From the NCBI GenBank assembly GCA_001770475.1, contig MERB01000016.1, forward strand, positions 23,274 to 67,250: 43,977 nucleotides of DNA, written 5' to 3'. The stretch comes from Betaproteobacteria bacterium RIFCSPLOWO2_02_FULL_66_14 (GTDB lineage: Bacteria > Pseudomonadota > Gammaproteobacteria > Burkholderiales > SG8-39). The first letter of the stretch is position 1. Each line of letters opens with the position of its first letter. The notes beneath the pieces are model-generated. The model worked only from the letters and a program-made list of their open reading frames with translations. It was not told the origin of the DNA and searched no databases. Shown piece by piece: positions 27,183 to 39,230 of this stretch. Made by a program: the position numbers and the translations under genes.

Positions 27183-28828
27183 TCGCGGCGCGGCGCGGCG
27201 TCGTCGCGGCGCTCGCGCTCGTCCTCGCGCTCGCCTGGTTCGCCGGTCTGGACCATCGCAAGCTGATCAAGCCCGACGAGGGCCGCTACGGGGAAATTCC
27301 GCGCGAAATGGTCGCGAGCGGCGACTGGCTCACGCCGCGCCTGAACGGATTCAAGTACTTCGAAAAGCCGCCCTTGCAGTACTGGACGACGGCTGCCGCG
27401 TACCGGCTGTTCGGCGTCGGCGAATGGCAGACGCGGCTCTGGACCGCGCTCACCGCCTTCGGGGGCATCGTCCTGGCCGGATTTGCTGCCGCCCGGCTGT
27501 ACGGCGCTACGGCAGGCGTGCTCGCCGCCGCAGTGCTCGCGGGCAGCGCGCTCTACGTGGTCACGGGTCACCTCGCGTCGCTCGATGCGGGCGTCGCGTT
27601 CTTTCTCTCGTTGGCGGTGTTCGCGATCCTGCTGGCCCAACGCGAGGAAGCCGGCGAATCCTCGCGCCTGCGCTGGATGCTCGCGGCGTGGTCCGCGGCT
27701 GCGCTCGCGGTACTGTCCAAGGGGCTCATCGGAATCGTGCTCCCGGTTGCCGCGCTCGCAACCTACCTGCTGTGGCAGCGCGACTGGCGAACGGCGCGCC
27801 GCCTGCACGCGGGGGCCGGGAGCGCGCTTTTCCTCGCGCTGAGCGCGCCCTGGTTCGTCGCCGTGTCGCTCGCCAACCCGGAATTCTTCCGCTTCTTCTT
27901 CATCCACGAGCATTTCGAGCGGTTCCTCACCAAGGTCCATGGACGCTACGAGCCGCCGTGGTACTTCGTGCCGGTGCTCGCGGTCGGGATCCTGCCCTGG
28001 TTGCCGGCGCTGCCCGGCGCCGTCGTGGCCGCGTTTCGGACTGCCGAACCGGGGCGGTTCCGGCCGCTGCGCTGGCTGCTCGCGTGGTGCGCCGTCGTGT
28101 TCGTCTTCTTTTCGGTTTCGGGCTCGAAGCTGCCTTCGTACATCCTGCCGATGTTCCCGGCGCTCGCGGTGCTGATCGGCCGGCACCTGCAGCAGGCGTC
28201 CCGACGATTGCTCGCAGTGCAGGCGGGCGTCGCGATCCTGGTCGGGCTGGCGATCGTCGCGTTCGGGTCAGGGCTTTCCGATCGCGCGAGCGGCAGGTAC
28301 TCGCCCGGGCAGATCGAGGCCTATCTCGAGTGGATCCTTGCCGCCGGAGGCGTGCTTGCGGCCGCTTCCGCTGCGGCGCTCTGGCTCGCCTGGCGGCGAC
28401 GGACGCTCGCCTCGGTGATCGCGCTTGCGCTCGCCGGCCTCGCGAGCACCCAACTGCTCCTGCTCGGACACGAATCGCTCGCGCCGGCGTATTCTGCGTA
28501 TCATCTCGCGCAACGCGCCCGGCCGGCGATCGGCGACGGCGTGCCACTGTATGCCGTCGACCTCTTCGACCACACCATTCCGTTCTATTTCGAAAGGACC
28601 GTGACCATGGTCGGCTACCGCGACGAGCTGGCGGCCGCGATTTCGTGGGAGCCGCAGAAGTTCCTGCCGGACGTGGCGGCCTTTGCCGCCGCCTGGCGCA
28701 CGCAACCGAAGGCGGCGGCGATCTTTCGCACGGGAGATTTCGAACGCATCGCCGCCGAGTACTCGCTGCCGGCGGAGATCGTGGCGCGCGATGCGCGTTT
28801 CGTGGTCGTCCGGAAGCCCGGACCATGA
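27179..28828 (+). CDS. arnT: 4-amino-4-deoxy-L-arabinose (L-Ara4N) lipid A transferase, GT39/ArnT family
   Basis: 549 aa and polytopic. The N-terminal signature is KPDEGRYGEIPREMVASGDWLTPRLNGFKYFEKPPLQYW. It heads an arn gene cluster. Confidence 0.88.
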   Translation: MIAARRGVVAALALVLALAWFAGLDHRKLIKPDEGRYGEIPREMVASGDWLTPRLNGFKYFEKPPLQYWTTAAAYRLFGVGEWQTRLWTALTAFGGIVLAGFAAARLYGATAGVLAAAVLAGSALYVVTGHLASLDAGVAFFLSLAVFAILLAQREEAGESSRLRWMLAAWSAAALAVLSKGLIGIVLPVAALATYLLWQRDWRTARRLHAGAGSALFLALSAPWFVAVSLANPEFFRFFFIHEHFERFLTKVHGRYEPPWYFVPVLAVGILPWLPALPGAVVAAFRTAEPGRFRPLRWLLAWCAVVFVFFSVSGSKLPSYILPMFPALAVLIGRHLQQASRRLLAVQAGVAILVGLAIVAFGSGLSDRASGRYSPGQIEAYLEWILAAGGVLAAASAAALWLAWRRRTLASVIALALAGLASTQLLLLGHESLAPAYSAYHLAQRARPAIGDGVPLYAVDLFDHTIPFYFERTVTMVGYRDELAAAISWEPQKFLPDVAAFAAAWRTQPKAAAIFRTGDFERIAAEYSLPAEIVARDARFVVVRKPGP

Positions 28829-29196
28829 GCCCGGTCAGCCTCGGGCTCATTCTCGGCGGCGTGCTGCTCAACGCCGTGGCGCAACTGCTTCTGAAGGCGG
28901 GAACCAACGCCATCGGCCATTTCGAATTCAGCGCCGGCAACGTCGTGCCGGTCGGCTTGAGGCTCGCGTTCGAACCCCACATCCTCGGCGGCGTCGCCTG
29001 CTACGTCGTCAGCCTCGTGGTCTGGATACTCGGCCTGTCGCGCGTCGAGGTGAGCATCGCGTATCCGATGCTCTCGCTCGGCTACGTGATCAACGCGGTC
29101 GCCGCCTGGTACCTGTTCGGCGAATCGCTGACCGCGGTGCGCATGGCCGGAATCGGATTCATCATCGTGGGCGTGGTCCTGGTGGCGCGAAGCTGA
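28825..29196 (+). CDS. small EamA/SMR-like membrane protein, ArnE/ArnF-type L-Ara4N-undecaprenyl phosphate flippase subunit
   Basis: In ORF 27424..29196. The ATG at 28825 overlaps the arnT stop (ATGA). It is 123 aa with 4 TM segments (LNAVAQLLLKAG...AYPMLSLGYVINAVAAWYLFGE). Confidence 0.75.
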   Translation: MSPVSLGLILGGVLLNAVAQLLLKAGTNAIGHFEFSAGNVVPVGLRLAFEPHILGGVACYVVSLVVWILGLSRVEVSIAYPMLSLGYVINAVAAWYLFGESLTAVRMAGIGFIIVGVVLVARS

Positions 29197-30299
29197 TGCA
29201 GATGCTCCCTTTCACCCGGCCCTCGATCGACGAGCAGACGATCGAAGGCGTTGCCGAGGTGCTGCGTTCCGGCTGGATCACCTCGGGGCCGCAGGTGAAG
29301 GCGTTCGAAGCGGCGCTGTCGCAGCATTGCGGCGGCAGGAGCGTGCGCACGTTCTGCTCCGGCACGGCGGCGCTCGAAGTGGCGCTGCGGCTTGCCGGAA
29401 TCGGCGCCGGCGACGAGGTGATCACGACGCCGCTGTCCTGGGTCGCGACCGCCAACGTGGTGCTCGAGGTCGGGGCGCGCCCGGTGTTCGCGGACGTCGA
29501 TCCGCGCAGCCGCAACCTCGATCTCGACGCGGCGGAAGCCGCGATCACGCGGGCGACGCGCGCGATCCTGCCGGTGGACCTCGCCGGGCTGCCGGTGCCG
29601 CGCGATCGCCTCTACGCCATCGCCGAACGGCACGGCCTGCGCGTCATCGAGGATGCCGCCCAATCTTTCGGCGCACGCTCGCGGGGCCGGCCGATCGGAT
29701 CCTTCGGCGACCTCGTCGCGTTCAGCTTTCACGCCAACAAGAACGTCACCACGGCCGAGGGCGGCGCCGTGGTGCTCCCCGATCCGGGACTCGCGAGCCT
29801 GTGCGAACGGCTGCGCCTGCAGGGCGTAGTGCGCTCGGGCGAGGACGGCATGGAGGTGGAGGTGCTCGGCGGCAAGTGGAACCTGACCGACGTCGCCGCG
29901 CGCATCGGCCTGGGGCAGCTCGCCCGGCTCGAGGAGTTCACGGCACGCCGGCACGCGCTCGCGCGCCGCTATTTCGCGCAATGGGATCGGACGCTCGGCT
30001 GCGGGCTTCCGGTCGAGGACTTCGACGAAAGCAACTGGCACATGTTCCAGGTGACCCTGCCGGAAGGCGCCGACCGCGCCGCGTTCATCGCGGAGATGCG
30101 CGGCCTGGGGATCGGCGTCGGCGTGCACTATCCGGCGATGCACCTGTTCGCCCTCTACCGCGCGCTGGGCTGGAGGGCCGGACAGTTTCTTCAGGCCGAA
30201 CGCATCGGCCGCTCGATCGTCACGCTGCCGCTTTTTCCGGCGATGGCGGACGCAGATGTCGATCGCGTTTGCGCAGCGGCGCGCAAGGTGCTTGCATGA
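29196..30299 (+). CDS. arnB: UDP-4-amino-4-deoxy-L-arabinose--oxoglutarate aminotransferase (DegT/DnrJ/EryC1 family)
   Basis: In ORF 28683..30299. The start MQMLPFTRPSIDE overlaps the upstream stop by 1 nt. It has the SGWITSGP motif and the PLP-Lys context FSFHANKNVTTAEGG. Confidence 0.9.
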   Translation: MQMLPFTRPSIDEQTIEGVAEVLRSGWITSGPQVKAFEAALSQHCGGRSVRTFCSGTAALEVALRLAGIGAGDEVITTPLSWVATANVVLEVGARPVFADVDPRSRNLDLDAAEAAITRATRAILPVDLAGLPVPRDRLYAIAERHGLRVIEDAAQSFGARSRGRPIGSFGDLVAFSFHANKNVTTAEGGAVVLPDPGLASLCERLRLQGVVRSGEDGMEVEVLGGKWNLTDVAARIGLGQLARLEEFTARRHALARRYFAQWDRTLGCGLPVEDFDESNWHMFQVTLPEGADRAAFIAEMRGLGIGVGVHYPAMHLFALYRALGWRAGQFLQAERIGRSIVTLPLFPAMADADVDRVCAAARKVLA

Positions 30300-31252
30300 G
30301 CGCGATCGAGCTTTCCGTGGTGATCCCGGTGTTCGACGAGGAGGCCGGGCTGCCGGCGCTGTTCGAGCGGCTGTATCCGGCGCTCGATTCACTCGGCTTG
30401 CGCTACGAAGTGATTTTCGTCGACGACGGCAGCCGAGACCGCTCTGCCCAGGTCCTGCGCGAGCAGTTTGCGCGGCGCGCAGACGTGACCCGCGTCGTGC
30501 TGCTCGCGGCCAACTTCGGGCAGCACATGGCGATCCTCGCCGCGTTCGAGCGCTCGCGCGGCGGGACCGTGGTGACCCTCGACGCCGACCTGCAGAATCC
30601 GCCCGAGGAAATCGGCAAGCTGCTCGAGGCGATCCGCGCGGGGCACGACTACGTCGGCAGCTACCGGCACGAGCGCGAGGACAGCGCCTTCCGCCGCATC
30701 GCGTCGCGAATGATCAACTCGCTTCGCGAACGCACCACGGACATCCGCATGACCGACCACGGCTGCATGCTGCGGGCCTACGCCCGGGGCGTGGTGGACG
30801 CCATCAACCAGTCGCGCGAAACCAACGCCTTCGTCCCCGCCCTCGCCTACACCTTCGCGCGCCGCCCGACCGAAATCGAGGTCGCGCACGCGCCGCGCGC
30901 CGCCGGCGAATCGAAGTATTCGCTGTATCGGCTGATCCAGCTCAATTTCGACCTGATGACCGGGTTTTCCGCGAAGCCTCTGCAGATCTATTCGCTGTTC
31001 GGAATGCTGGTGTCGGTCGGCTCGATCGCCACCTACGTGATCGTGCTCGGCAAGCGGCTCCTGGAGGGCGATTCGTTCGGTCGCGCGATCGCGGTCATCT
31101 GGGACCGTGACATCCTGCAGTTCCTGCTCATCGGCGTGACGCTCTTCGGCATCGGGCTGCTCGGCGAATACGTCTCCCGAATCATCGAGCAGGTGCGCGG
31201 CCGGCCGCGCTACCTGGTGCGCGCGGTGATCGAGCGTGACCCTCCGGCCTGA
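30296..31252 (+). CDS. arnC: undecaprenyl-phosphate 4-deoxy-4-formamido-L-arabinose transferase (GT2)
   Basis: In ORF 29327..31252. The ATG at 30296 overlaps the arnB stop (ATGA). It reads LSVVIPVFDEE...VIFVDDGSRD...TLDADLQNPPEEI and has two C-terminal TM helices. Confidence 0.9.
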   Translation: MSAIELSVVIPVFDEEAGLPALFERLYPALDSLGLRYEVIFVDDGSRDRSAQVLREQFARRADVTRVVLLAANFGQHMAILAAFERSRGGTVVTLDADLQNPPEEIGKLLEAIRAGHDYVGSYRHEREDSAFRRIASRMINSLRERTTDIRMTDHGCMLRAYARGVVDAINQSRETNAFVPALAYTFARRPTEIEVAHAPRAAGESKYSLYRLIQLNFDLMTGFSAKPLQIYSLFGMLVSVGSIATYVIVLGKRLLEGDSFGRAIAVIWDRDILQFLLIGVTLFGIGLLGEYVSRIIEQVRGRPRYLVRAVIERDPPA

Positions 31253-31255
31253 GCG

Positions 31256-32122
31256 ATGCCCGTCCGCGCCGCGGTCTTCGCCTACCACGACGTCGGCGTG
31301 CGCTGCCTGGGCGTGCTGCTCGCTGCGGGCGTCGAAGTCCCGCTGGTGGTCACGCACCGCGACGATCCCGGCGAGCGCATCTGGTTCGCGAGCGTCGCTG
31401 AACTCGCCGCCCGGCACGGTATCGAGACTCTCACTCCGGAGGATCCGGACACTCCCGAATTGATGGCGCGGCTGCGAGCGCTGGCGCCGGATTTCCTCTT
31501 CTCCTTCTACTACCGGCGCATGCTTTCGCCCGAACTCCTCGCCGTCGCCGGTCGCGGCGCGTTCAACCTGCACGGCTCGCTGCTGCCGCGGTATCGCGGC
31601 CGTGCGCCCGTCAACTGGGCGGTGCTGCGCGGAGAAACCGAAACCGGCGCGACGCTGCACGAGATGGTCGCAAAGCCCGATGCGGGACGGATCGTCGACC
31701 AGGAGCCGGTCCCGATCGGACCGGAGGATCTCGCGGTCGAAGTGTTCCGACGCGTCACCGAGGCAGCCGAAACGGTCCTGCGCCGCAGCCTGCCCGGACT
31801 GATCGCCGGCACCACCGCGTTTCGGGCGCAAGATCTCTCGAAAGGCAGCTACTTCGGCGGCCGCAAGCCGGAGGACGGCCGCATCGACTGGCGGCGCAGC
31901 GCAGCCGAGATTCACAACCTGGTGCGCGCCGTGGCGCCGCCTTTTCCGGGCGCGTTCACCGAGATCGGCGGCGCCAGCCTGATGATCCATCGCACGCGCC
32001 GCGAGCCCGGGCGCACGGCGCCGCAGGCGGTTTCCGGCCCGTTCCGCGAGGGCGATGCGTGGTTCGCGGCCTGCGGCGATGGTACAGTCCTGCGCCTGCT
32101 CGAAGTCGAACTCAAACCATGA
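31256..32122 (+). CDS. arnA: UDP-L-Ara4N formyltransferase (stand-alone ArnA N-terminal domain)
   Basis: 288 aa. The formyltransferase motifs are FNLHGSLLPRYRGRAPVNWAV and TLHEMVAKPDAGRIV. Confidence 0.88.
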   Translation: MPVRAAVFAYHDVGVRCLGVLLAAGVEVPLVVTHRDDPGERIWFASVAELAARHGIETLTPEDPDTPELMARLRALAPDFLFSFYYRRMLSPELLAVAGRGAFNLHGSLLPRYRGRAPVNWAVLRGETETGATLHEMVAKPDAGRIVDQEPVPIGPEDLAVEVFRRVTEAAETVLRRSLPGLIAGTTAFRAQDLSKGSYFGGRKPEDGRIDWRRSAAEIHNLVRAVAPPFPGAFTEIGGASLMIHRTRREPGRTAPQAVSGPFREGDAWFAACGDGTVLRLLEVELKP

Positions 32123-33162
32123 AACGCGTCCTCATTCTCGGCGTCAACGGATTCATCGGCCACCATCTCTCGCGCCGCATTCTCGAGACGACGAGCTGGG
32201 AGGTCTACGGCATGGACATGCAGACCGACCGCGTCGACGGCCTGCTCGCCGAGAAGCGCTTCCATTTCTTCGAAGGCGACATCACCATCAACCGCGAGTG
32301 GATCGAGTATCACGTGCGCAAGTGCGACACCGTGATCCCGTTGGTCGCGATCGCCACGCCCGCGCTGTACGTAAAACAGCCGCTGCGAGTGTTCGAGCTC
32401 GATTTCGAGGCCAATCTGCCGATCGTGCGCGCCTGCGTGCAGCACGGCAAACGGCTCATCTTTCCGTCGACTTCCGAGGTCTACGGCATGTCGCCGGACC
32501 GCGAGTTCGATCCCGAGACCTCGCCCCTGGTTTACGGCCCGATCGGCAAGCCGCGCTGGATCTACGCCTGCGCCAAGCAGCTGATGGACCGGGTGATCTG
32601 GGCCTATGGCGCCGAGCGCGGACTCGACTACACGCTGTTCCGGCCGTTCAACTGGATCGGCTCGGGGCTCGATTCGATCAACACGCCGAAGGAAGGCAGT
32701 TCGCGCGTGGTGACGCAGTTCTTCGGCCACATCGTGCGGGGCGAAACCATTCACCTGGTGGACGGTGGACGGCAGACGCGCGCCTTCACCTACATCGACG
32801 ACGGCATCGACGCGCTGATGAGCGTCATCGAAAACCGCGGCGGGGTCGCCTCGGGAAAGATCTACAACATCGGCAATCCGCGCAACAACGTCTCGGTGGC
32901 CGCGCTCGCGCGCGCCATGGTGAAGCTCGCGCTGGAGTACCCCGAGTACCGTGCTGCCGCGCGCAAGGTGCGCATCGTGAAGACGCGAGCCTGCGACTAC
33001 TACGGCCGCGGCTACCAGGACGTGCAGCACCGCGTGCCACGGATCACCAACACGCGGCGCGATCTCGCCTGGCGGCCGCGAGTCGGCATGAGCGACGCGT
33101 TGCGGCGCATTTTCGACTCCTACCGCACACAGGTGCGCGAAGCACGGCGCCTGGTCGACTGA
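32119..33162 (+). CDS. arnA: UDP-glucuronate oxidative decarboxylase (stand-alone ArnA C-terminal SDR domain)
   Basis: In ORF 32059..33162. The ATG at 32119 overlaps the upstream stop (ATGA). It has the Rossmann motif VLILGVNGFIGHHL, PSTSEVYG and YACAKQLMD (YxxxK). Confidence 0.88.
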   Translation: MKRVLILGVNGFIGHHLSRRILETTSWEVYGMDMQTDRVDGLLAEKRFHFFEGDITINREWIEYHVRKCDTVIPLVAIATPALYVKQPLRVFELDFEANLPIVRACVQHGKRLIFPSTSEVYGMSPDREFDPETSPLVYGPIGKPRWIYACAKQLMDRVIWAYGAERGLDYTLFRPFNWIGSGLDSINTPKEGSSRVVTQFFGHIVRGETIHLVDGGRQTRAFTYIDDGIDALMSVIENRGGVASGKIYNIGNPRNNVSVAALARAMVKLALEYPEYRAAARKVRIVKTRACDYYGRGYQDVQHRVPRITNTRRDLAWRPRVGMSDALRRIFDSYRTQVREARRLVD

Positions 33163-33171
33163 ATCCCCGGA

Positions 33172-34074
33172 TTGAAGCTCGCCCTCAAGGTGGACGTCGA
33201 CACGTTCCGCGGCACGCGGGACGGGGTGCCGCGCCTGATCGAGCGGCTTCGTCGCCACGGAGCGGGGGCGACGTTTCTCTTCAGCCTCGGGCCCGACCAT
33301 ACCGGCCGCGCCATCCGGCGCGCCTTCCGGCCGGGATTCCTTGGGAAAGTCAGGCGAACCTCGGTGCGCGAGCACTACGGGCTCAAGACGCTGCTCTACG
33401 GCACGCTGCTTCCCGGACCGGACATCGGGCGCGAGTGCGCGGCGCAAATGCGCTCCGCGCGCGACGCGGGATTCGAGGTAGGCATCCATTGCTGGGACCA
33501 CGTTCGCTGGCAGGATGGCGTCGCGGATGCGGACGCGGCGTGGACCGAGCACGAACTAAATTTGGCATGCGAGCGTTTCCGTGAGGTGTTCGGCGACGCG
33601 GCGCGCGTCCACGGCGCTGCGGGCTGGCAGATGAATCCGCATGCATTACGGCTACTGGATGCGGCGCGATTCCGCTACGCCTCCGACACGCGCGGCACGC
33701 ACCCGTTTCTTCCGGTGTGGGGCGGCGAGCGGTTCTCCTGTTTGCAGCTTCCCACGACGCTGCCTACGCTCGACGAACTGATCGGCACCGACGGGATCGA
33801 CGCCAGCGATGTGGTGCAGCATGTGCTGGCACTGACGGCGCGCCCAGCACCGCAGGTGTACACAGCGCACGCCGAACTCGAAGGCGGAAAACTCGAGGGC
33901 GTGTTCGACGCGCTGCTCGAAGGTTGGCGGCAGCAGGGCTATGAAATTGTCAGCCTGCAGGCATTTGCGATCGCACTTGATCCTGCGCACTTGCCGCGCC
34001 ACGAGGTCGCGCTCGGCGCGGTTCCGGGACGTTCCGGCACGCTTGCGCTGCAAGGCAGAGAGATCGTCGCGTGA
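33172..34074 (+). CDS. arnD: 4-deoxy-4-formamido-L-arabinose-phosphoundecaprenol deformylase (polysaccharide deacetylase fold)
   Basis: 300 aa with a TTG start. It reads LKVDVDTFRGTRDGVPRL...ATFLFSLGPDHTGRA...GIHCWDHVRWQ... Confidence 0.85.
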   Translation: MKLALKVDVDTFRGTRDGVPRLIERLRRHGAGATFLFSLGPDHTGRAIRRAFRPGFLGKVRRTSVREHYGLKTLLYGTLLPGPDIGRECAAQMRSARDAGFEVGIHCWDHVRWQDGVADADAAWTEHELNLACERFREVFGDAARVHGAAGWQMNPHALRLLDAARFRYASDTRGTHPFLPVWGGERFSCLQLPTTLPTLDELIGTDGIDASDVVQHVLALTARPAPQVYTAHAELEGGKLEGVFDALLEGWRQQGYEIVSLQAFAIALDPAHLPRHEVALGAVPGRSGTLALQGREIVA

Positions 34075-34128: not shown

Positions 34129-34866
34129 CTATGCTGCAGAGACGGCCGGGACCGCTCGGCGCAGGGGCATCTCGTCGTAGTGCCTGCCGTTGAGTCTGCG
34201 CCCCGTCAAATCCTTGCGCGTCCCGCCCCATTGCTTGAAGAAGAATGCCACGCCCGCGGTGCGGCACTGGCGCAGTATCGATGTCACCCACTCGCGCTTC
34301 ATCGGCCGTGCACGCGGTCCTGATTCTCCCCCAACAATCGCCCAGTCGACACCGGCAAGCGGCAGTGCCTCCAGCGGCCCGATCAAGGGCTCGAGCGAAA
34401 GAAAACGCACCGCAGCCGGCACTTGCTGCAGATAACCGATGCGATTCACGACTCTGTCATCCTCGACGCTGACGCCCATCCAGACGTTCTCGGGCCAAGG
34501 CAGTCGAGGGGCGAGGGCAGCGAGGCGCTCAGCGCGCTTCGTGAGGATCTGAAACGTGTGCTGGCGCGCCCGCCTCATGCTTACAAAGACGCTGGCGATG
34601 TAACTTTCCGGCACATCTTCATGAAACAGATCGCTCATGGAATTCACGAACACCACGCGAGGTTGCTGCCATTTCAGCGGCACCTCCAGCAAATCTGGGT
34701 GCAGCGTGACGCGGAATCCGTTGCGGTAGCGCCCATTGCCCATTGCCGTCAGTCGTCTTGCCATGCGTTCCGCATAGCAGTTCTTGCATCCCTGGCTGAT
34801 CTTCGTGCAACCCGTGACCGGGTTCCACGTCATTTCGGTCCACTCGATGTTGCTCTTCGTCGGCAT
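34129..34866 (-). CDS. DUF5131 / phage Gp37-Gp68 family protein with N-terminal three-Cys motif
   Basis: In ORF 34129..34908. The ATG at 34866 gives MPTKSNIEWTEMTWNPVTGCTKISQGCKNCYAERMA, the family-typical IEWT..TWNP..GC......GC.NCYA. It continues ...VFVNSMSDLF...FLSLEPL...VDWAIVGGESG...FFFKQWGG. Confidence 0.85.
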   Translation of the reverse strand: MPTKSNIEWTEMTWNPVTGCTKISQGCKNCYAERMARRLTAMGNGRYRNGFRVTLHPDLLEVPLKWQQPRVVFVNSMSDLFHEDVPESYIASVFVSMRRARQHTFQILTKRAERLAALAPRLPWPENVWMGVSVEDDRVVNRIGYLQQVPAAVRFLSLEPLIGPLEALPLAGVDWAIVGGESGPRARPMKREWVTSILRQCRTAGVAFFFKQWGGTRKDLTGRRLNGRHYDEMPLRRAVPAVSAA

Positions 34867-34921
34867 AGCGCCCTGCCCTCCCCGCCTTGCGCACAATACC
34901 TTGACCAAGCGGCAAGCTCAA

Positions 34922-35737
34922 TCAGATGAGGCGCCCCTGAGGCGACACGTTCGCTATCGCTTCCCATAACTTGTGCGCCAGAGGAGCACGGGACACGAAC
35001 ACGAGCCAATACAGGTCCGTGTTCTTGCTGTTCAGAACCTCTTCCACTCGTGCGTTCGGCGCGATATCAAGCCGGCTGATCAGGAGTTCGCGCCAATGCT
35101 CGAAGATTCCTTGACGAACCGATTCCTTCGGTAATCGCGTGTCGACGGCCTGCCGCCAATTGGGCGCAAACTCGTCCAGAACCCGAGACTTTGGCTTCAT
35201 GTAGTTGTGCAAATTGCGCTTCAGATCCATGGAGCTCACGTGAATGAGCAGGTCAATGTGCTTGCGCGCGGCGAGTTCCTCGATGATCGCAAAGGGCAGC
35301 GACGCAAGGCCGTAGGGATCCAGGAACGCGAAGTGCAAGCCCTTCGGATCAAGCGAGAAAATGATTTCTTTGGTGACATTGCGCGCCTCTCCGGTGTACG
35401 CATGCACCCTGGCGCCCAGTTTCTCAAGCCGCGTCTTGGCCGCCTCGACAAAAGCCGGTTCACGGTCGGCCACATAAAAATCGGTGAACTGATCGCCGTG
35501 CTTAGCAGCGGAGCGAAACGCAACTAACGGACTGCCGTCCGCCATCTCGCCCGTCTCCTCTATCCGGGCGCGTCCCGGCCCGCAATAGAGATCCACGTAC
35601 GCGCAGCTGATGAACCTTCTGCGCGCGCCGTGCGCTGCGTCCACATACTTGCGCAGGCGCTCGTGTTTTTCTAGCGACCAGATGCCGATTTCAGCTACCG
35701 GCAGCCCGTCTTCCGGGTCGGTCAAGGTCAAGTCCAC
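34922..35737 (-). CDS. tcmP: three-Cys-motif partner protein TcmP (TIGR04474-like)
   Basis: 271 aa. It reads IGIWSLEKHERLRKYVDA...YVDLYCGPGRARI...FAFLDPYGLASLPF...DLLIHVS...YWLVFVSR. It sits immediately upstream of a DUF5131 gene, which is the defining genomic context of TcmP. This is recognised from memory of the family description, not searched. Confidence 0.75.
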   Translation of the reverse strand: MDLTLTDPEDGLPVAEIGIWSLEKHERLRKYVDAAHGARRRFISCAYVDLYCGPGRARIEETGEMADGSPLVAFRSAAKHGDQFTDFYVADREPAFVEAAKTRLEKLGARVHAYTGEARNVTKEIIFSLDPKGLHFAFLDPYGLASLPFAIIEELAARKHIDLLIHVSSMDLKRNLHNYMKPKSRVLDEFAPNWRQAVDTRLPKESVRQGIFEHWRELLISRLDIAPNARVEEVLNSKNTDLYWLVFVSRAPLAHKLWEAIANVSPQGRLI

Positions 35738-35791
35738 GCCCTCTCAACGCACCGCTGGAATGATACTGTGCTTATATTCAGTTATCGAGCC

Positions 35792-38614
35792 ATGCCATGG
35801 CCGATAACGCACGTGGTATCGTTTGCGCCGACACGATCGAAGACCCCCTTGCCCCTGCCCTGGAACGAGATCCGCGACCGCGCCATCGGCTTTGCACGCG
35901 ACTGGCAGGACGCGGAAAGCGAGCGCGCCGAGGCGCAGACGTTCTGGAACGAGTTCTTTGCGGTGTTCGGCGTGCCGCGCCGGCGCGTGGCGAGCTTCGA
36001 GGAGCCAGTCCGCAAGCTCGGCGAGCGGCGCGGCCGCATCGACGCCTTCTGGAAAGGCATTCTGGTGGTCGAACACAAGTCGCGCGGGCAGGACCTCGAT
36101 CGCGCGTTCATCCAGGCGCTCGATTACTTCCCCGGCATTGCCGACCGCGACCTGCCCAAGTACGTGCTGGTATCCGATTTCGCCCGCTTCCGGCTCTACG
36201 ACCTCGATGCGGACACCCACAGCGAGTTCGCGCTGAAGGACCTCCACAAGCACATCAAGCGCTTCGGCTTCATCGCGGGCTATGCGGCGCAGGAGATCAA
36301 GCCGCAGGACCCGGTCAACATCCGCGCTGCCGAGCAGATGGGGCGGCTGCACGATCTGCTGAAGGACACGGGATATTCCGGCCACGATCTTGAGGTGCTG
36401 CTGGTGCGGCTCGTCTTCTGCCTGTTCGCCGACGACACCGGCATTTTCTCGAAGCAGTCGTTCCGCGACTGGATCGAGACCCGTACCGCCGAGGACGGAA
36501 CGGACCTGGGACCGCAGCTCGCCCTGCTGTTCCAGGTCCTGAATACCCCGGAGGGTCACCGGCAAAGCAATCTTGACGAGCAGATTGCCGCGTTCGCCTA
36601 CGTCAACGGCAGGCTCTTCGAGGAAACCCTGCAACTTGCGACCTTCGACCGCAAGATGCGGGCGACGCTGCTCGATTGCTGTGCGCTCAACTGGGGCTCG
36701 GTAAGCCCCGCGATCTTTGGCGCCCTGTTCCAGAGCATCATGGACGCGAAGGCGCGCCGCAACCTCGGCGCGCACTACACCAGCGAGGAGAACATCCTCA
36801 AGCTGATCAAGCCGCTCTTCCTCGACGAGTTGTGGGCCGAATTCAGCCGGATACGGAACAACAAGAACCGGCTATTCGAGTTCCACAAGAGGCTGCGCAC
36901 GCTCGTGTTCCTTGACCCGGCCTGCGGCTGCGGCAATTTCCTTGTCATCACCTACCGAGAGCTGCGGCTGCTTGAACTGGAACTCCTGCGTGCCGTGCAC
37001 AGCGGTCCCGGGTCGCGGTTTCTAAACATTCACCAGGAACTGACTCTCGATGTCGATCAGTTCTACGGCATCGAGATCGAGGAGTTTCCGGCGCAGATCG
37101 CGCAGGTGGCTCTGTGGCTGATCGACCACCAGATGAACCTCAAGGTGTCTGAAGAGTTCGGGATGTATTTCGCCCGGATTCCGCTGAAGACGACGCCGCA
37201 CATCGTTCACGGCAACGCGCTGCGGCTCGACTGGAACGAGGTGGTGCCAGCCGAGCGGCTGAGCTACAGCATCAGTAATCCACCGTTTGTCGGGAAGCAG
37301 CACCAGACGGTCGAACAGAAGGCGGATCTCGAGTCCGTCCTCTCGGGGGTGAGCGGCGCCGGGGTACTCGACTTTGTGACTGGCTGGTACTTCAAGGCCG
37401 CGCGATACCTGCAATCCAACAAGGCGATCCGCTGCGCGTACGTGTCCACGAACTCGATTTCGCAAGGCGAGCAGGTGGGCGTGCTTTGGGCAGATTTGCT
37501 GCGTGCGGGGATACGGATTCATTTCGCGCATCGCACGTTTCGGTGGTCGAACGAAGCTCGCGGTATGGCGGCCGTTCATTGCGTGGTGATCGGCTTTGGT
37601 GCGAGTGATGTGGAACGCAAGACGATCTTCGAGTACGAACGACCCGACGGCGAGCCGCACGCGATCGTCGCAGGGAACATCAATCCGTATCTGGTAGACG
37701 CCCCCGATGTCCTGCTAAAGTCCAGGAGTGAGCCGATCTGTGATGTACCGCCGATTCAGTTCGGGAGTATGCCGAACGACGGCGGCCACCTGCTGCTGAC
37801 CGACGCAGAACGTGCTGAATTGGTGATCCAGGAAATTGGCGCTGCGCGCTGGATCCGCAGGTTCATGAGTGCCGAGGAGTTTCTCCACAATGTGCCGCGA
37901 TGGTGTTTGTGGCTGAAGGGAATCAGCCCCACCGATCTCAAGGCCCTGCCTGAAATCGCGCGACGCGTTGCTGAGGTGAAGGCCTTGAGATCCATCAGCC
38001 GGCGCGCTACGACGAAAGAACTCGCCGCATTTCCGACGTTGTTTGGCGAAGACCGTCAGCCCGACTCGGCCTACATCCTCATCCCACGTCATTCGTCCGA
38101 GCGGCGAGCCATAGTCCCGATGGGATTTTTCGGTCCTGAAGTCATTGCCGCAGATAGTTGTCTAGCGGTTCCGAATGCAACGCTCTATGTGTTTGGGGTA
38201 TTGTCTTCGGCTATGCACAATGCTTGGATTCGCTCCGTCGCAGGCCGTTTGGAGAGCCGCTATCGCTATTCAAATCAGATTGTCTACAACAACTTCCCTT
38301 GGCCAGACCGACCTACCGACAAGCAGACGCAGGCAATCGAGTCGGCGGCGCAAGGCGTGCTCGACGCGCGAGCCGAATTTGCGGACTCATCGCTGGCGGA
38401 TTTGTACGACCCATTGACCATGCCACCATCGCTCACGCATGCGCACCAAGCACTCGACCGCGCAGTTGACGCCGCCTACGGAAAAAAGGGTTTTGCTTCG
38501 GACGCGGAGCGCGTGGCTTTTCTGTTCGGCCTTTATCAGCGCTACACCAGCCTTCTGCCAAGCGCGACGCCACCTTCGGCGCGAAAGGCCCGCGTGCGGC
38601 GCGCGCACGCGTAG
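35792..38614 (+). CDS. MmeI-family Type IIL (IIG) restriction endonuclease / N6-adenine DNA methyltransferase fusion
   Basis: In ORF 35768..38614. It is collinear, as I recall the sequence, with MmeI along its length: LPWNEIRDRAIGFARDW, the nuclease motif D-x9-E-x-K (RIDAFWKGILVVEHKS), RNLGAHYTSEENILKLIKPLFLDEL, SAM motif I FLDPACGCGNFLV, EIEEFPAQIAQVALWL, catalytic NPPFVG, STNSISQGEQV and GRLESRYRYS. The start is uncertain within ~10 codons (ATG at 35792). Confidence 0.88.
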   Translation: MPWPITHVVSFAPTRSKTPLPLPWNEIRDRAIGFARDWQDAESERAEAQTFWNEFFAVFGVPRRRVASFEEPVRKLGERRGRIDAFWKGILVVEHKSRGQDLDRAFIQALDYFPGIADRDLPKYVLVSDFARFRLYDLDADTHSEFALKDLHKHIKRFGFIAGYAAQEIKPQDPVNIRAAEQMGRLHDLLKDTGYSGHDLEVLLVRLVFCLFADDTGIFSKQSFRDWIETRTAEDGTDLGPQLALLFQVLNTPEGHRQSNLDEQIAAFAYVNGRLFEETLQLATFDRKMRATLLDCCALNWGSVSPAIFGALFQSIMDAKARRNLGAHYTSEENILKLIKPLFLDELWAEFSRIRNNKNRLFEFHKRLRTLVFLDPACGCGNFLVITYRELRLLELELLRAVHSGPGSRFLNIHQELTLDVDQFYGIEIEEFPAQIAQVALWLIDHQMNLKVSEEFGMYFARIPLKTTPHIVHGNALRLDWNEVVPAERLSYSISNPPFVGKQHQTVEQKADLESVLSGVSGAGVLDFVTGWYFKAARYLQSNKAIRCAYVSTNSISQGEQVGVLWADLLRAGIRIHFAHRTFRWSNEARGMAAVHCVVIGFGASDVERKTIFEYERPDGEPHAIVAGNINPYLVDAPDVLLKSRSEPICDVPPIQFGSMPNDGGHLLLTDAERAELVIQEIGAARWIRRFMSAEEFLHNVPRWCLWLKGISPTDLKALPEIARRVAEVKALRSISRRATTKELAAFPTLFGEDRQPDSAYILIPRHSSERRAIVPMGFFGPEVIAADSCLAVPNATLYVFGVLSSAMHNAWIRSVAGRLESRYRYSNQIVYNNFPWPDRPTDKQTQAIESAAQGVLDARAEFADSSLADLYDPLTMPPSLTHAHQALDRAVDAAYGKKGFASDAERVAFLFGLYQRYTSLLPSATPPSARKARVRRAHA

Positions 38615-38774: not shown

Positions 38775-39230
38775 ATGCCCGGAAAATCCGTCAAGGACTT
38801 TTCCCTCCCCTCGACTGGCGGCACCGCGTTTCGCCTGAGCGCACTTCGCGGCAGGAAGCTGGTCCTGTACTTCTACCCGAAGGACAACACCCCGGGCTGC
38901 ACCACCGAGGGAATGCAGTTCCGCGACCTGCACGAGGAATTCGTGAAATCGGGCTGCGCGGTGTACGGCGTTTCGCGCGACTCGCTCAAGTCGCACGAAA
39001 ACTTCAAGTCGAAATTCAAGCTGCCGTTCGAACTGCTCTCGGACGAAAAGGAAAGCGTCTGCACGCAGTTCGGCGTCATCAAGCTGAAGAACCTTTACGG
39101 CCGGAAGGTCCGTGGCATCGAGCGCAGCACCTTCGTTCTCGATCGCGAGAGCGTGGTGGCGCGCGAGTGGCGCGGCGTGAAAGTGCCGGGACATGCGCAG
39201 GAGGTACTCGACTTTGTTAAAACCCTCTGA
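38775..39230 (+). CDS. bcp: thioredoxin-dependent thiol peroxidase (peroxiredoxin Bcp)
   Basis: 151 aa. The peroxidatic Cys context is LYFYPKDNTPGCTTE, and GVSRDS...H..F and STFVLD are present. Confidence 0.92.
   Translation: MPGKSVKDFSLPSTGGTAFRLSALRGRKLVLYFYPKDNTPGCTTEGMQFRDLHEEFVKSGCAVYGVSRDSLKSHENFKSKFKLPFELLSDEKESVCTQFGVIKLKNLYGRKVRGIERSTFVLDRESVVAREWRGVKVPGHAQEVLDFVKTL

Follow-up and report, generated by a model that had tools for sequence, protein, structure and literature searches.

A putative LexA (SOS) box upstream of a tcmP–DUF5131 gene pair located back to back with an MmeI-family restriction-modification gene

The stretch of DNA analysed here (the window; 43,977 nucleotides of contig MERB01000016.1 from Betaproteobacteria bacterium RIFCSPLOWO2_02_FULL_66_14) carries a tcmP–DUF5131 gene pair preceded by a putative LexA (SOS) box of the type appropriate to its lineage, which is the new finding for this pair. 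Judging from the upstream sequences, the operon is probably a member of the LexA (SOS) regulon in this clade and in a large share of the family as a whole. The locus is best explained, with moderate confidence, as an old, horizontally acquired islet of two separate units placed back to back, the second of which would be an autonomous, DNA-damage-inducible SAM/radical-SAM module directed at nucleic acid.

Organisation of the locus

Three genes occupy the gap between the arn operon and bcp: those of a DUF5131 protein and of TcmP on the minus strand, and that of an MmeI-family enzyme on the plus strand (Table 1). This layout was described in a first-pass annotation of the sequence and all of its coordinates were borne out on re-checking. 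The reading of tcmP and DUF5131 as a two-gene minus-strand unit with a short gap was likewise confirmed, as was a compact divergent control region common to both units, which was found to contain a conserved operator. The start codons of tcmP and the MmeI-family gene are 54 bp apart if tcmP begins at GTG and 60 bp apart with the TTG start used by gene callers (269 aa, P0001). For DUF5131, the open reading frame spans 34129-34908 and the ATG at 34866 was chosen in line with homologues and gene callers.

Table 1. Coordinates of the features of the locus within the window
Feature	Position	Strand	Details
DUF5131 (Gp37/Gp68, three-Cys) gene	34129..34866	-	245 aa; PF07505, E=2.9e-99
Intercistronic gap tcmP/DUF5131	34867..34921	-	55 bp; both genes read as one operon
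tcmP (three-Cys-motif partner protein)	34922..35737 (GTG) or 35731 (TTG)	-	269-271 aa
Divergent control region	35738..35791		Common to tcmP-DUF5131 and the MmeI-family gene
Predicted sigma-70-type tcmP promoter	35760..35788	-	-35 TCGATA (35788-35783), 17-nt spacer, -10 TATCAT (35765-35760)
Putative LexA (SOS) box CTGTGCTTATATTCAG	35766..35781		One mismatch to betaproteobacterial CTGT-N8-ACAG; CTG and CAG triplets kept
MmeI-family Type IIL restriction-modification enzyme	35792..38614	+	940 aa; all five MmeI Pfam domains

The island is flanked on one side by an operon of arnT/E/B/C/A plus an arnD-like gene and on the other by bcp (AhpC-TSA) and a PIN-PhoH gene. It is lower than these flanks both in G+C (0.59-0.63 versus 0.65-0.70) and in GC3 (0.72-0.77 versus 0.78-0.91). 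The same three genes in the same order were found at the identical chromosomal site in two other species-level genomes (L023 and L027), showing that the layout is not an accident of assembly. More widely, TcmP adjoins DUF5131 in 79 of 80 species-level loci, with a co-directional TcmP>DUF5131 order and short gaps at 59 of the 79 assessable ones. The surrounding genes are highly variable and at most loci are housekeeping genes such as those of EF-G, S1, ClpB, PBP, PGI and GuaA.

The control region and its LexA (SOS) box

The putative LexA box occupies the stretch between the -35 and -10 elements of the predicted tcmP promoter and lies 10 bp before the ATG of the MmeI-family gene. The promoter call comes from a consensus scan only, which gave two sites in a 5-kb region against 1.3 expected. 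The box of the window is not significant alone (with up to one mismatch allowed, the window has seven matches where 8.7 are expected), and its weight therefore derives solely from comparative evidence. Orthologous boxes are present in L023 and L027, and perfect ones in L017-L020, L024 and L026. Ahead of the pair's first gene, loci of Beta- and Gammaproteobacteria possess CTGT-N8-ACAG boxes that are perfect or nearly so, and those of Alphaproteobacteria possess GTTC-N7-GTTC or GAAC-N7-GAAC boxes. Using strict criteria, boxes were identified at 30 of 79 pair loci; the control set, made up of other genes with an upstream region of their own, gave 9 of 542 (odds ratio 36, p=5e-22). When the criteria were relaxed, the figures became 34/79 and 7/440 (p=1e-24), and the median position of the box was -36 relative to the start codon. 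Alignment of nine beta- and gammaproteobacterial upstream regions (consensus ATACTGTAnATATATACAGTA) placed six of the seven invariant columns in the CTG and CAG triplets of the box. Approximately 57% of pair loci have no recognisable LexA box; these are chiefly convergent-gene variants and members of a Bradyrhizobium-like clade.

Comparison of loci also indicates to which of the two units the box belongs. A scan of 72 MmeI-only loci gave a single match, the other 71 having no LexA box, whereas the 54-60 bp divergent region of the window has one. Perfect boxes are found at pair-only loci with unrelated neighbours, and where a plasmid copy of the pair lies inside a restriction-modification (RM)-like operon, a perfect box of its own precedes the DUF5131 gene by 31 bp. 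On this comparative evidence, the putative LexA/SOS operator is that of the pair and not of MmeI. The first-pass annotation overlooked this key feature of the control region, namely that it is a putative LexA/SOS operator of the pair.

The distribution of box types bears on whether the pair might instead serve mobile elements, for example in phage or plasmid anti-restriction DNA modification or in addiction, with chromosomal copies as leftovers and the adjacency to MmeI incidental. DUF5131 occurs in 181 phage records (hosts among Actinobacteria, Proteobacteria and Cyanobacteria, along with an archaeal virus), in many cases close to genes of a DNA methylase or polymerase, and a TcmP-like partner is present in a Gordonia phage; the resemblance seen in one Synechococcus phage is weak and non-significant. 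Plasmid copies of the pair lie among TniB/TniQ and IS elements, and integrases are among its recurrent neighbours. However, the type of LexA box follows host class, and host-type boxes switching in this manner imply long-term integration into host regulation. Many chromosomal pair loci also have no mobile-element hallmarks, and a tblastn search with the window-type TcmP gave no match among 50,697 phage records. Service to mobile elements is therefore considered very improbable.

The MmeI-family enzyme and its relationship to the pair

The MmeI-family enzyme has an intact nuclease motif D-X9-E-X-K (IDAFWKGILVVEHK) and intact methyltransferase motifs (DPACGCGNF and NPPF), and is matched by the PADLOC model REase_MTase_IIG at 1200 bits. 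Its residues 21-925 align to the sequence of the MmeI crystal structure (PDB accession no. 5HR4; 1200 bits), a full-length alignment in which the five-domain single-chain architecture, the D-X9-E-X-K, NPPF and FxGxG motifs and the target-recognition domain stretch GRLESRYRYS are kept, while the remaining sequence has diverged. MmeI is documented as self-sufficient. That enzymes of this family need no partner genes, as the first-pass annotation held, agrees with the absence of the pair from 79 of the 80 closest MmeI homologue loci. The enzyme is an intact, self-sufficient Type IIL unit, separate from the pair.

The same annotation suggested that the pair could serve as an accessory DNA-modification or effector module forming one composite system with the MmeI-type enzyme. 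A specific version of this proposal is damage-induced protection ('restriction alleviation') for RM systems methylating one strand, the sites of which turn unmodified following repair synthesis. Methylation is confined to one strand in MmeI-type (IIL), Type ISP and Type III enzymes. MmeI-like genes were identified beside the pair in the window, L015, L023, L027 and L095, and the divergent layout is kept in L023 and L027 although TcmP is only 59-60% identical. L095 shows a second architecture, MmeI>TcmP>DUF5131, which is co-directional with 40-bp gaps, and the alphaproteobacterial locus L029 retains a decayed MmeI N-terminus in the same position and orientation. Other RM genes beside the pair are Eco57I-like (L042, a IIG enzyme for which one-strand methylation is not assumed), Type ISP-like (L010, divergent with a 71-bp gap) and Type III-like (L016), and on an Acidovorax plasmid the pair is embedded in a methyltransferase-helicase-nuclease operon. 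As the box lies only 10 bp from the MmeI ATG, co-regulation is physically plausible, and in this lineage LexA may repress MmeI along with the pair.

Against a composite system, an MmeI homologue adjoins only 3 of 80 pair loci, plus the decayed remnant, and three of the MmeI-linked cases (window, L023 and L027) represent one vertically inherited locus; in the reciprocal comparison, the pair is present at only one of the 80 closest MmeI homologue loci. MmeI_Mtase is the commonest Pfam family among close neighbours of the pair, yet accounts for only 4 of 112 ORFs, and these counts are too small to separate a specific MmeI link from a general clustering of mobile DNA-metabolism genes. The MmeI-only loci without a LexA box and the self-sufficiency of MmeI, all catalytic motifs of which are kept in the window copy, argue in the same direction. 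A composite system is thus improbable. Of the proposed cooperation or co-regulation, the compact shared region with its operator and the recurrence of RM neighbours stand, whereas a specific or dependent tie to MmeI does not, given the near-constant adjacency of DUF5131 and TcmP among mostly housekeeping neighbours. MmeI is a co-resident neighbour of long standing in the island and not an obligate partner of the pair.

TcmP and DUF5131

TcmP matches TIGR04474 (E=1.4e-46; 159.6 bits, cut-off 53) and possesses motif I (DLYCGPG), D89 and an invariant LDP[Y/F] loop, its SAM-binding motifs being invariant in an alignment of homologues (A1). Foldseek analysis of its confident AF2 model (pLDDT 90.6) returned class I methyltransferases. 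The closest of these in global structure is RlmJ (DUF519), the 23S rRNA m6A2030 methyltransferase (TM 0.55, rmsd 4.6 A), and TcmP models as an RlmJ-like class I SAM-methyltransferase fold. Besides this fold, the two have in common an acidic-proline-aromatic loop in the place of motif IV. They differ in that sequence identity is about 12-13% with no HMM-level match, that a conserved N-terminal KH-RLR-Y helix and a C-terminal YWLVF sheet are particular to TcmP, and that its loop reads D-P-[Y/F] rather than DPPY. Compared with the canonical (D/N/S)PP(Y/F) motif, the loop lacks the second proline, which makes methyltransferase activity of TcmP uncertain; the likeness to RlmJ is structural only and would not imply action on rRNA.

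DUF5131 possesses the invariant residues C20, C27 and C30 (CX6CX2C) and a GGE-type motif (GGESG). It matches rSAM_mob_pairA weakly, under the cut-off of that model (E=1.5e-20). Among PDB folds, the top Foldseek hits of its AF2 model (pLDDT 70.7) are to spore photoproduct lyase (E~3e-3, TM 0.43-0.47), and RadicalSAM.org places DUF5131 in Megacluster-5-2, beside spore photoproduct lyase in 5-3 (PMC9477430). The protein may thus be described as a CX6CX2C radical-SAM-like protein with spore photoproduct lyase as its predicted nearest fold. Its conservation is very strong: identity is 77% or higher across the best 120 matches and 55% to the copies in Gordonia phage. Such conservation fits a fixed chemical substrate better than a protein engaged in an arms race.

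Is the pair a defence system?

DUF5131 is matched strongly by the PADLOC models PDC-M41B (E=1e-119) and PDC-M30B (E=2e-113). Cassettes of DUF5131 with a TcmP-like partner have been nominated as the defence candidates PDC-M30 and PDC-M41 by 'guilt by embedding', because they occur inside systems of the BREX, DISARM or Type I RM kind (Payne et al., bioRxiv 10.1101/2024.01.29.577857), and the arrangement is therefore not an undescribed one, as had been suggested. The window-type cassette shares the DUF5131 component and is also found beside or inside RM systems; its TcmP scores only 37.9 bits to the PDC-M41A models, a weak match placing it in a different TcmP subfamily. In the literature searched on PDC-M30 and PDC-M41, neither SOS regulation nor a fold assignment was found.

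The pair may accordingly be an anti-phage or anti-mobile-element defence that is independent of MmeI and switched on through the SOS response by phage infection or prophage induction. It might, for instance, attack nucleic acid through radical-SAM or methyltransferase chemistry. Its close neighbours include Type IIG, Type III and DUF499 systems, DrmD-like helicases, a CBASS cyclase, DarT and AbiEi, and its distribution is patchy, with plasmids and transposons carrying it. In a temperate Gordonia phage it lies between the integrase and immunity repressor genes, a typical site of prophage defence genes, and in Sinorhizobium meliloti the TcmP gene SMa2243 is tabulated beside the Hna defence gene SMa2245 in one table. 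Enrichment near RM or defence genes, also raised by the first-pass annotation, holds in part: PADLOC matched 77 families among neighbours within 1.5 kb versus 35 at 5-9 kb, but this control set also holds defence genes, so that the local enrichment is modest, and for MmeI-like genes the rarity noted above stands against it. PDC-M30 is somewhat commoner in phage-resistant Pseudomonas aeruginosa strains (68.8% of 32), a correlation which is weak and confounded. As most pair loci sit among housekeeping genes and the conservation of DUF5131 is higher than is usual in defence proteins, a defence function is possible but rather unlikely.

Proposed role of the pair

For the favoured reading, that of an autonomous damage-inducible module, the following mechanism is proposed. 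LexA would occupy the box in the tcmP promoter spacer and, upon DNA damage, RecA-mediated cleavage of LexA would derepress the tcmP-DUF5131 operon. TcmP, with its RlmJ-like fold and amino-methyltransferase-like D-P-[Y/F] loop, would be the nucleic-acid-binding partner, presenting (flipping) a base that is damaged or otherwise targeted. As a CX6CX2C [4Fe-4S] radical-SAM-like enzyme, DUF5131 would cleave SAM and perform radical chemistry on the base presented by TcmP, presumably with both proteins in a complex and with DNA as the substrate. The most likely role of the pair would be repair or processing of a DNA lesion, a reading suggested by the resemblance of the modelled DUF5131 fold to the DNA-repair enzyme spore photoproduct lyase, weak as that match is; damage-induced nucleic-acid modification is the next possibility.

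Two known systems offer comparison. The radical SAM repair enzyme SplB (spore photoproduct lyase, COG1533) and a two-gene cassette of a uracil-DNA glycosylase (UDG) and a radical-SAM protein (COG1573-COG4277) are both members of the SOS regulon (PMC8565304). Neither has sequence-level homology to the pair, nor was a link at the level of sequence found to any solved protein. The cluster motif also differs (CX6CX2C in DUF5131 versus CX3CX2C), and the partner in the pair has a methyltransferase fold, not that of a glycosylase. Like both systems, the pair is predicted to be under LexA control and to contain a radical-SAM-type enzyme, and, like COG1573-COG4277, it is a two-gene cassette combining such a protein with a member of a fold family that includes base-flipping nucleic-acid enzymes.

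Gene content of the island

The island formed by tcmP, the DUF5131 gene and an MmeI-family gene is flanked by an arnT/E/B/C/A and arnD-like operon on one side and by bcp and a PIN-PhoH gene on the other, and both its G+C and its GC3 are below those of these flanks. The window itself is metagenomic DNA of a Burkholderiales-like bacterium. All three genes were found at the positions and on the strands reported in the first-pass annotation, and the 55-bp gap between tcmP and the DUF5131 gene was also confirmed. TcmP matches TIGR04474 (three-Cys-motif partner) with 159.6 bits (cut-off 53), covering model positions 2-260 of 263, while profile search of DUF5131 gave 332 bits against the PF07505 cut-off of 28.9.

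Features of the island and of its divergent control region (positions in the window)
Feature	Position	Strand	Details
DUF5131 ORF	34129-34908	-	ATG at 34866 is the start in homologues and public gene calls (245 aa); PF07505 E=2.9e-99
tcmP	34922-35737	-	GTG start; gene callers take TTG at 35731, two codons downstream
Predicted tcmP promoter, -10	35765-35760	-	consensus scan
Putative LexA box	35766-35781		
Predicted tcmP promoter, -35	35788-35783	-	consensus scan
MmeI-family gene	35792-38614	+	940 aa; all five MmeI Pfam domains

Some details of the flanks were also recorded. The PIN-PhoH gene as listed begins 38 bp within the end of bcp (window 39193-39230): this is an overlap of the two genes unless PIN-PhoH in fact starts further downstream. 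Long spurious antisense or alternative-frame ORFs of up to 546 aa cover the arn genes (window 28683-33552); such ORFs are common in high-GC DNA and easily mislead naive ORF calling. At one related locus (L027:6748-6966) the bcp beside the island is matched in two fragments only (residues 1-49 and 126-151) and may be a pseudogene.

The MmeI-family enzyme

Type IIL enzymes of the MmeI family cleave about 20/18 nt from an asymmetric site and methylate one strand only. Their catalytic motifs are a PD-(D/E)XK-type D-X9-E-X-K, an FxGxG-like motif I and a motif IV of the form NPPF/Y. The domains PF20464, PF20465, PF20473, PF20466 and PF20467 each scored far over cut-off in the protein of the window, and its residues 21-925 align with the sequence of the MmeI crystal structure (5HR4) at 1200 bits. 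Its single-polypeptide architecture comprises an N-terminal nuclease, a helical spacer, a gamma-class N6-adenine methyltransferase, a target-recognition domain and a C-terminal domain. The D-X9-E-X-K nuclease motif (IDAFWKGILVVEHK) aligns with its MmeI equivalent, and methyltransferase motif I (DPACGCGNF) and motif IV (in SNPPFVGK) are both kept and aligned to their MmeI counterparts. No separate methyltransferase or specificity gene was found in the island among the window ORFs and public gene calls. The first-pass annotation had regarded the enzyme as self-contained, and this holds: it is a stand-alone gene, and 79 of the 80 loci of its closest homologues lack the TcmP/DUF5131 pair. Judged by its sequence, the gene adds an unexceptional new member to a known family.

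Association of the pair with restriction-modification genes

Comparison of 80 species-representative loci encoding TcmP relatives (38-72% identity) showed the DUF5131 gene adjoining the TcmP gene in 79, the sole exception being a contig end. Among these 79 assessable loci, TcmP and DUF5131 are co-directional in that order in 59, convergent in 15 and in reverse order in four. When 790 neighbour ORFs were clustered all against all, no third gene family was common to the loci beyond small syntenic groups; the surroundings vary, and a fixed larger operon around the pair was rejected. Frequent housekeeping neighbours are EF-G, ribosomal protein S1, ClpB, PBP, PGI, GuaA, PDH E1 and GyrB/ParE.

Only three of the 80 loci (L015, L023 and L027) have a complete MmeI homologue upstream of the pair and divergent from it. 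The arnD-like and PhoH flanks of the window also occur in L023 and L027, and the window, L023 and L027 are therefore considered one vertically inherited locus, across which the arrangement is kept despite divergence (identities of 59-60% for TcmP, 70-85% for MmeI and 79-83% for DUF5131). Reciprocally, the pair is present in only one of the 80 loci carrying the closest metagenomic MmeI homologues (53-69% identity). Neither MmeI nor the pair thus needs the other, and a requirement for, or specificity of, MmeI was rejected on these counts. The two families have nonetheless been joined at least twice.

The one metagenomic locus (L095:1047-5369, soil metagenome contig Ga0193726_1004761) carries MmeI, TcmP and DUF5131 co-directionally in that order with gaps of about 40 bp; its TcmP is 40% and its DUF5131 77% identical to those of the window, and no LexA box was found there. 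In a Rhizomicrobium MAG, an alphaproteobacterium (L029:6151-6318), 56 residues of an MmeI N-terminus (66% identical) remain about 860 bp upstream of the pair, in the same position and divergent orientation, which points to a three-gene module that has decayed in another class.

Restriction-modification (RM) genes of other types were also found beside the pair: a Type III-like Mod/Res pair upstream of the cassette in L005 and L016, a 1019-aa ISP-coupler/N6_Mtase/Eco57I/Type_ISP_C protein divergent from it across a 71-bp gap in L010, and a 785-aa Eco57I-like protein upstream of it in L042. MmeI_Mtase tops the Pfam families among neighbours within 1.5 kb, yet it accounts for just four of 112 ORFs. 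With PADLOC models, 77 families were matched within 1.5 kb of the pair, including Type IIG, Type III, DUF499, DrmD, CBASS cyclase, DarT and AbiEi, against 35 in a matched set 5-9 kb away; these neighbour counts are approximate, as the simple GC3-based gene caller errs in high-GC DNA (for example in the window at 28.7-32 kb), although the spurious ORFs it yields receive no family match. These counts show a modest local enrichment near RM and defence genes; defence or RM neighbourhoods of the pair are frequent but far from universal.

In Hydrogenophaga-, Verminephrobacter- and related betaproteobacteria (L061:6833-9703, L076:5987-9415 and L087:6680-9964) the pair is convergent and directly downstream of large proteins of DUF499, a defence-island family, and the LexA box is absent at these three loci. 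They may represent a subtype of the cassette in its own right, embedded in defence genes.

A putative LexA operator upstream of the pair

A palindrome common to the divergent intergenic region of the window and its orthologues corresponds to the betaproteobacterial SOS box (consensus CTGT-N8-ACAG, cited in PMC6595937). The putative LexA box of the window (CTGTGCTTATATTCAG) has one mismatch, intact CTG and CAG triplets and a spacer that is A/T at six of eight positions; taken alone it is not above chance, with seven matches at one mismatch or fewer in the window against 8.7 expected. The boxes of L023 and L027 have one mismatch each, while perfect boxes with spacers of 7-8/8 A/T occur in relatives that carry only the pair, among unrelated neighbours (L017, L018, L019, L020, L024 and L026). 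When nine upstream regions were aligned, the CTG and CAG triplets made up six of the seven invariant columns, and the consensus, ATACTGTAnATATATACAGTA, is in sequence a classical LexA box.

GTTC-N7-GTTC or GAAC-N7-GAAC, which we take to be the alphaproteobacterial LexA motif, lies upstream of tcmP in 17 alphaproteobacterial loci. Four loci have the DUF5131 gene in first place, and in three of them a box of this type precedes it. Each of the two motifs, the Beta/Gamma palindrome and the Alpha direct repeat, is confined to the matching taxa. At the Rhizomicrobium locus with the MmeI remnant (L029), an alphaproteobacterial-type box (GTTCAGTGACCGTTC) overlaps the tcmP start codon.

Under strict criteria a box precedes the first gene of the pair in 30 of 79 loci, compared with nine of 542 control genes (odds ratio 36, p=5e-22); the controls were other genes with their own upstream region, and divergent neighbours sharing the intergenic region of the pair were removed. 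Relaxed criteria gave 34 of 79 against seven of 440 (p=1e-24), with a median box start 36 bp before the start codon. A recognisable box is missing in about 57% of loci, mainly convergent variants beside DUF499-type systems and a Bradyrhizobium-like clade.

The box could in principle belong to the MmeI gene. Only one of 72 MmeI-only loci has any box match, with a GC-rich spacer, and this assignment was rejected. That count, together with a plasmid-borne, RM-embedded cassette that carries its own perfect box, assigns the box to the pair. The plasmid locus (L178:1-7925; p1-T1 of Acidovorax sp. T1, NZ_CP021649.1) is a seven-gene, co-directional, operon-like run with tiny gaps, in the order DNA methyltransferase, DEAD/DEAH helicase, GIY-YIG nuclease, DUF5131, TcmP (427 aa), TcmP (281 aa) and PIN protein. 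Its perfect SOS box (CTGTGCAAATAAACAG, 3756-3771) lies inside the run, 31 bp before the DUF5131 gene. By its gene content, the cassette here is a variant of three genes, two of them TcmP paralogues, set within an RM-like system.

The first-pass annotation had expected the pair and the MmeI gene to share a compact divergent control region; this region exists and holds what is, by these comparisons, a putative LexA operator of the pair, conserved in orthologues. In the predicted minus-strand tcmP promoter the 17-nt spacer between the -35 and -10 elements is the box itself. In the window lineage the putative operator thereby sits within a promoter region that a Type IIL restriction enzyme shares. 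With 10 bp between the end of the box and the MmeI ATG, bound LexA could also hinder MmeI transcription, which raises the possibility of an SOS-regulated Type IIL restriction enzyme.

Fold-level assignment of TcmP and DUF5131

Sequence and profile searches against PDB sequences gave no significant match to a solved relative of either protein; fold comparison was informative for both. The AlphaFold model of TcmP (pLDDT 90.6, pTM 0.89) has a class I SAM-methyltransferase fold and gave 122 PDB matches at E<=1e-3, those listed being SAM methyltransferases. The best global superposition (TM 0.53-0.56) was with RlmJ, the 23S rRNA m6A2030 methyltransferase, and a DUF519 relative. Invariant features of TcmP are D47, G51 and G53 of motif I (VDLYCGPG), the motif II acid D89 and a motif-IV-like L-D-P-[Y/F] loop. 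This loop has a single proline, unlike the canonical amino-methyltransferase motif IV, (D/N/S)PP(Y/F/W), and because the second proline is absent TcmP is classed as having a methyltransferase fold and not as a proven amino-methyltransferase. Searching viral folds (BFVD) with TcmP returned generic methyltransferases only.

DUF5131 belongs to a very large family (PF07505, at least 8,000 matches). Its cysteines C20, C27 and C30 are invariant and form a CX6CX2C motif (GCTKISQGCKNC), which differs from the canonical radical SAM cluster motif CX3CX2C; GGESG at 179-183 is also invariant. Radical SAM enzymes cleave SAM reductively by means of a [4Fe-4S] cluster and have a partial (beta/alpha) TIM barrel in which a GGE motif binds SAM. 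The protein matches "radical SAM mobile pair protein A" below threshold. Its model, of moderate quality (pLDDT 70.7), has a repeating beta-alpha pattern, and its top PDB folds are spore photoproduct lyase (SPL) and lipoyl synthase, matched weakly (E about 3e-3 to 1e-2, TM 0.43-0.47). In RadicalSAM.org DUF5131 is subgroup Megacluster-5-2, and spore photoproduct lyase occupies the adjacent 5-3 (PMC9477430). Conservation is high: the best 120 database matches are at least 77% identical, and identity to the copies of Gordonia phages is 55%.

TcmP evolves much faster than DUF5131 in the same loci (40-60% against 77-83% identity between the window and L010, L023, L027 and L095). This could reflect a role of TcmP as specificity or sensor subunit, or no more than relaxed constraint.

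Proposed role of the pair

In the best-supported reading of the operator and the predicted folds, tcmP-DUF5131 would work autonomously, as a SAM-dependent module of two enzymes that is induced by DNA damage and acts on a nucleic-acid base; its chemistry is narrowed to such an action by the RlmJ-like methyltransferase fold together with the SPL-like fold of radical-SAM type. LexA would repress the operon until DNA damage occurs; TcmP would then bind and present the target base, on which DUF5131 would perform radical-SAM chemistry. Lesion repair or processing is favoured as the role of the pair. Judged by the putative operator, the cassette is an SOS-regulon member in three classes of proteobacteria. 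Both by fold and by superfamily, DUF5131 is closest to a DNA-repair enzyme that is under SOS control in several phyla, and conservation of the radical-SAM component is extreme. A further reason is the known SOS-regulated cassette COG1573-COG4277, which combines a uracil-DNA-glycosylase-family protein with a radical-SAM protein (PMC8565304).

The main rival is that the pair is an SOS-triggered anti-phage system, as hypothesised in PADLOC; the defence-island and prophage contexts fit this better than they fit repair. PADLOC-DB v2 lists the cassette as PDC-M41/PDC-M30, whose B components are matched by the window DUF5131 at E=1e-119 and 2e-113, and whose A components are matched weakly by the window TcmP (37.9 bits, E=3.6e-10). 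Both are among 145 untested phage-defence candidates nominated because they lie within BREX, DISARM or Type I RM systems (Payne et al., bioRxiv 10.1101/2024.01.29.577857; see also PMC10855318). The arrangement can therefore not be called undescribed as a defence candidate, as it was at first: the pair consists of known but uncharacterised families that had already been flagged as such. In the DUF5131/TcmP literature neither a functional study nor a link to LexA was found. Within the literature searched, two things appear to be new: the fold-level assignment and a putative LexA operator that is conserved and matched to the lineage. Such an operator, predicted across Alpha-, Beta- and Gammaproteobacteria, is the first concrete way of approaching the function of the cassette, and one that is cheap to test; with the fold assignments, a pair of "function unknown" becomes an SOS module open to direct testing. 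Should the pair prove to be a repair system, the PADLOC label of defence candidate would have to change and a new radical-SAM route of DNA repair would be gained; should it prove to be a defence system, it would be one tied directly to the SOS signal.

The composite model of the first-pass annotation, in which the pair works or is co-regulated with the MmeI-type enzyme, is possible, if weakly supported; what it observed was confirmed, and its interpretation is partly supported. MmeI-type (IIL), Type ISP and Type III enzymes methylate one strand only. Most RM neighbours seen (MmeI-type, ISP-like and Type III-like) fall in these classes, so that a damage-induced protective function is conceivable, but their numbers are far too small for a test. 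It seems improbable to us that a LexA-controlled pair of radical-SAM-like and base-presenting methyltransferase-fold proteins, repairing or marking damaged DNA, is coupled in several lineages, physically and in its regulation, to one-strand-methylating RM enzymes (MmeI-type IIL, ISP-like and Type III) and gives damage-induced protection of unmodified self sites. Were the coupling real, restriction alleviation would have a new, SOS-wired form here, and the RM module would be composite in the full sense.

Further plasmid and phage copies

The three-gene variant with two TcmP proteins was also observed on a plasmid of B. pseudomallei (L177:3616-6798, NZ_CP009155.1), where the long TcmP and DUF5131 genes are divergent from the short TcmP gene. 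No SOS box was found at this locus, and the variant is flanked by TniB/TniQ (Tn7-like) and IS66 genes.

DUF5131 is present in at least 181 phage genome records. No tblastn match to the window TcmP was obtained in 50,697 phage records, which is attributed to the phage partners being too diverged. In the neighbour of a Synechococcus phage copy, TcmP motifs are visible by eye, but the resemblance is not statistically significant (probability 5.7%). Profile comparison did recover gp39 of Gordonia phage Easley as a TcmP homologue (hhalign probability 95%). In this temperate phage (L175:3492-5983) the DUF5131 gene (gp38) is convergent to that of gp39, a 371-aa "methyltransferase", between the integrase and the immunity repressor gp40; the actinobacterial (Cheo-type) LexA box was not found at the locus. 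The start of gp39 lies 3 bp after gp40 on the same strand, and it is therefore probably co-transcribed with the repressor during lysogeny.
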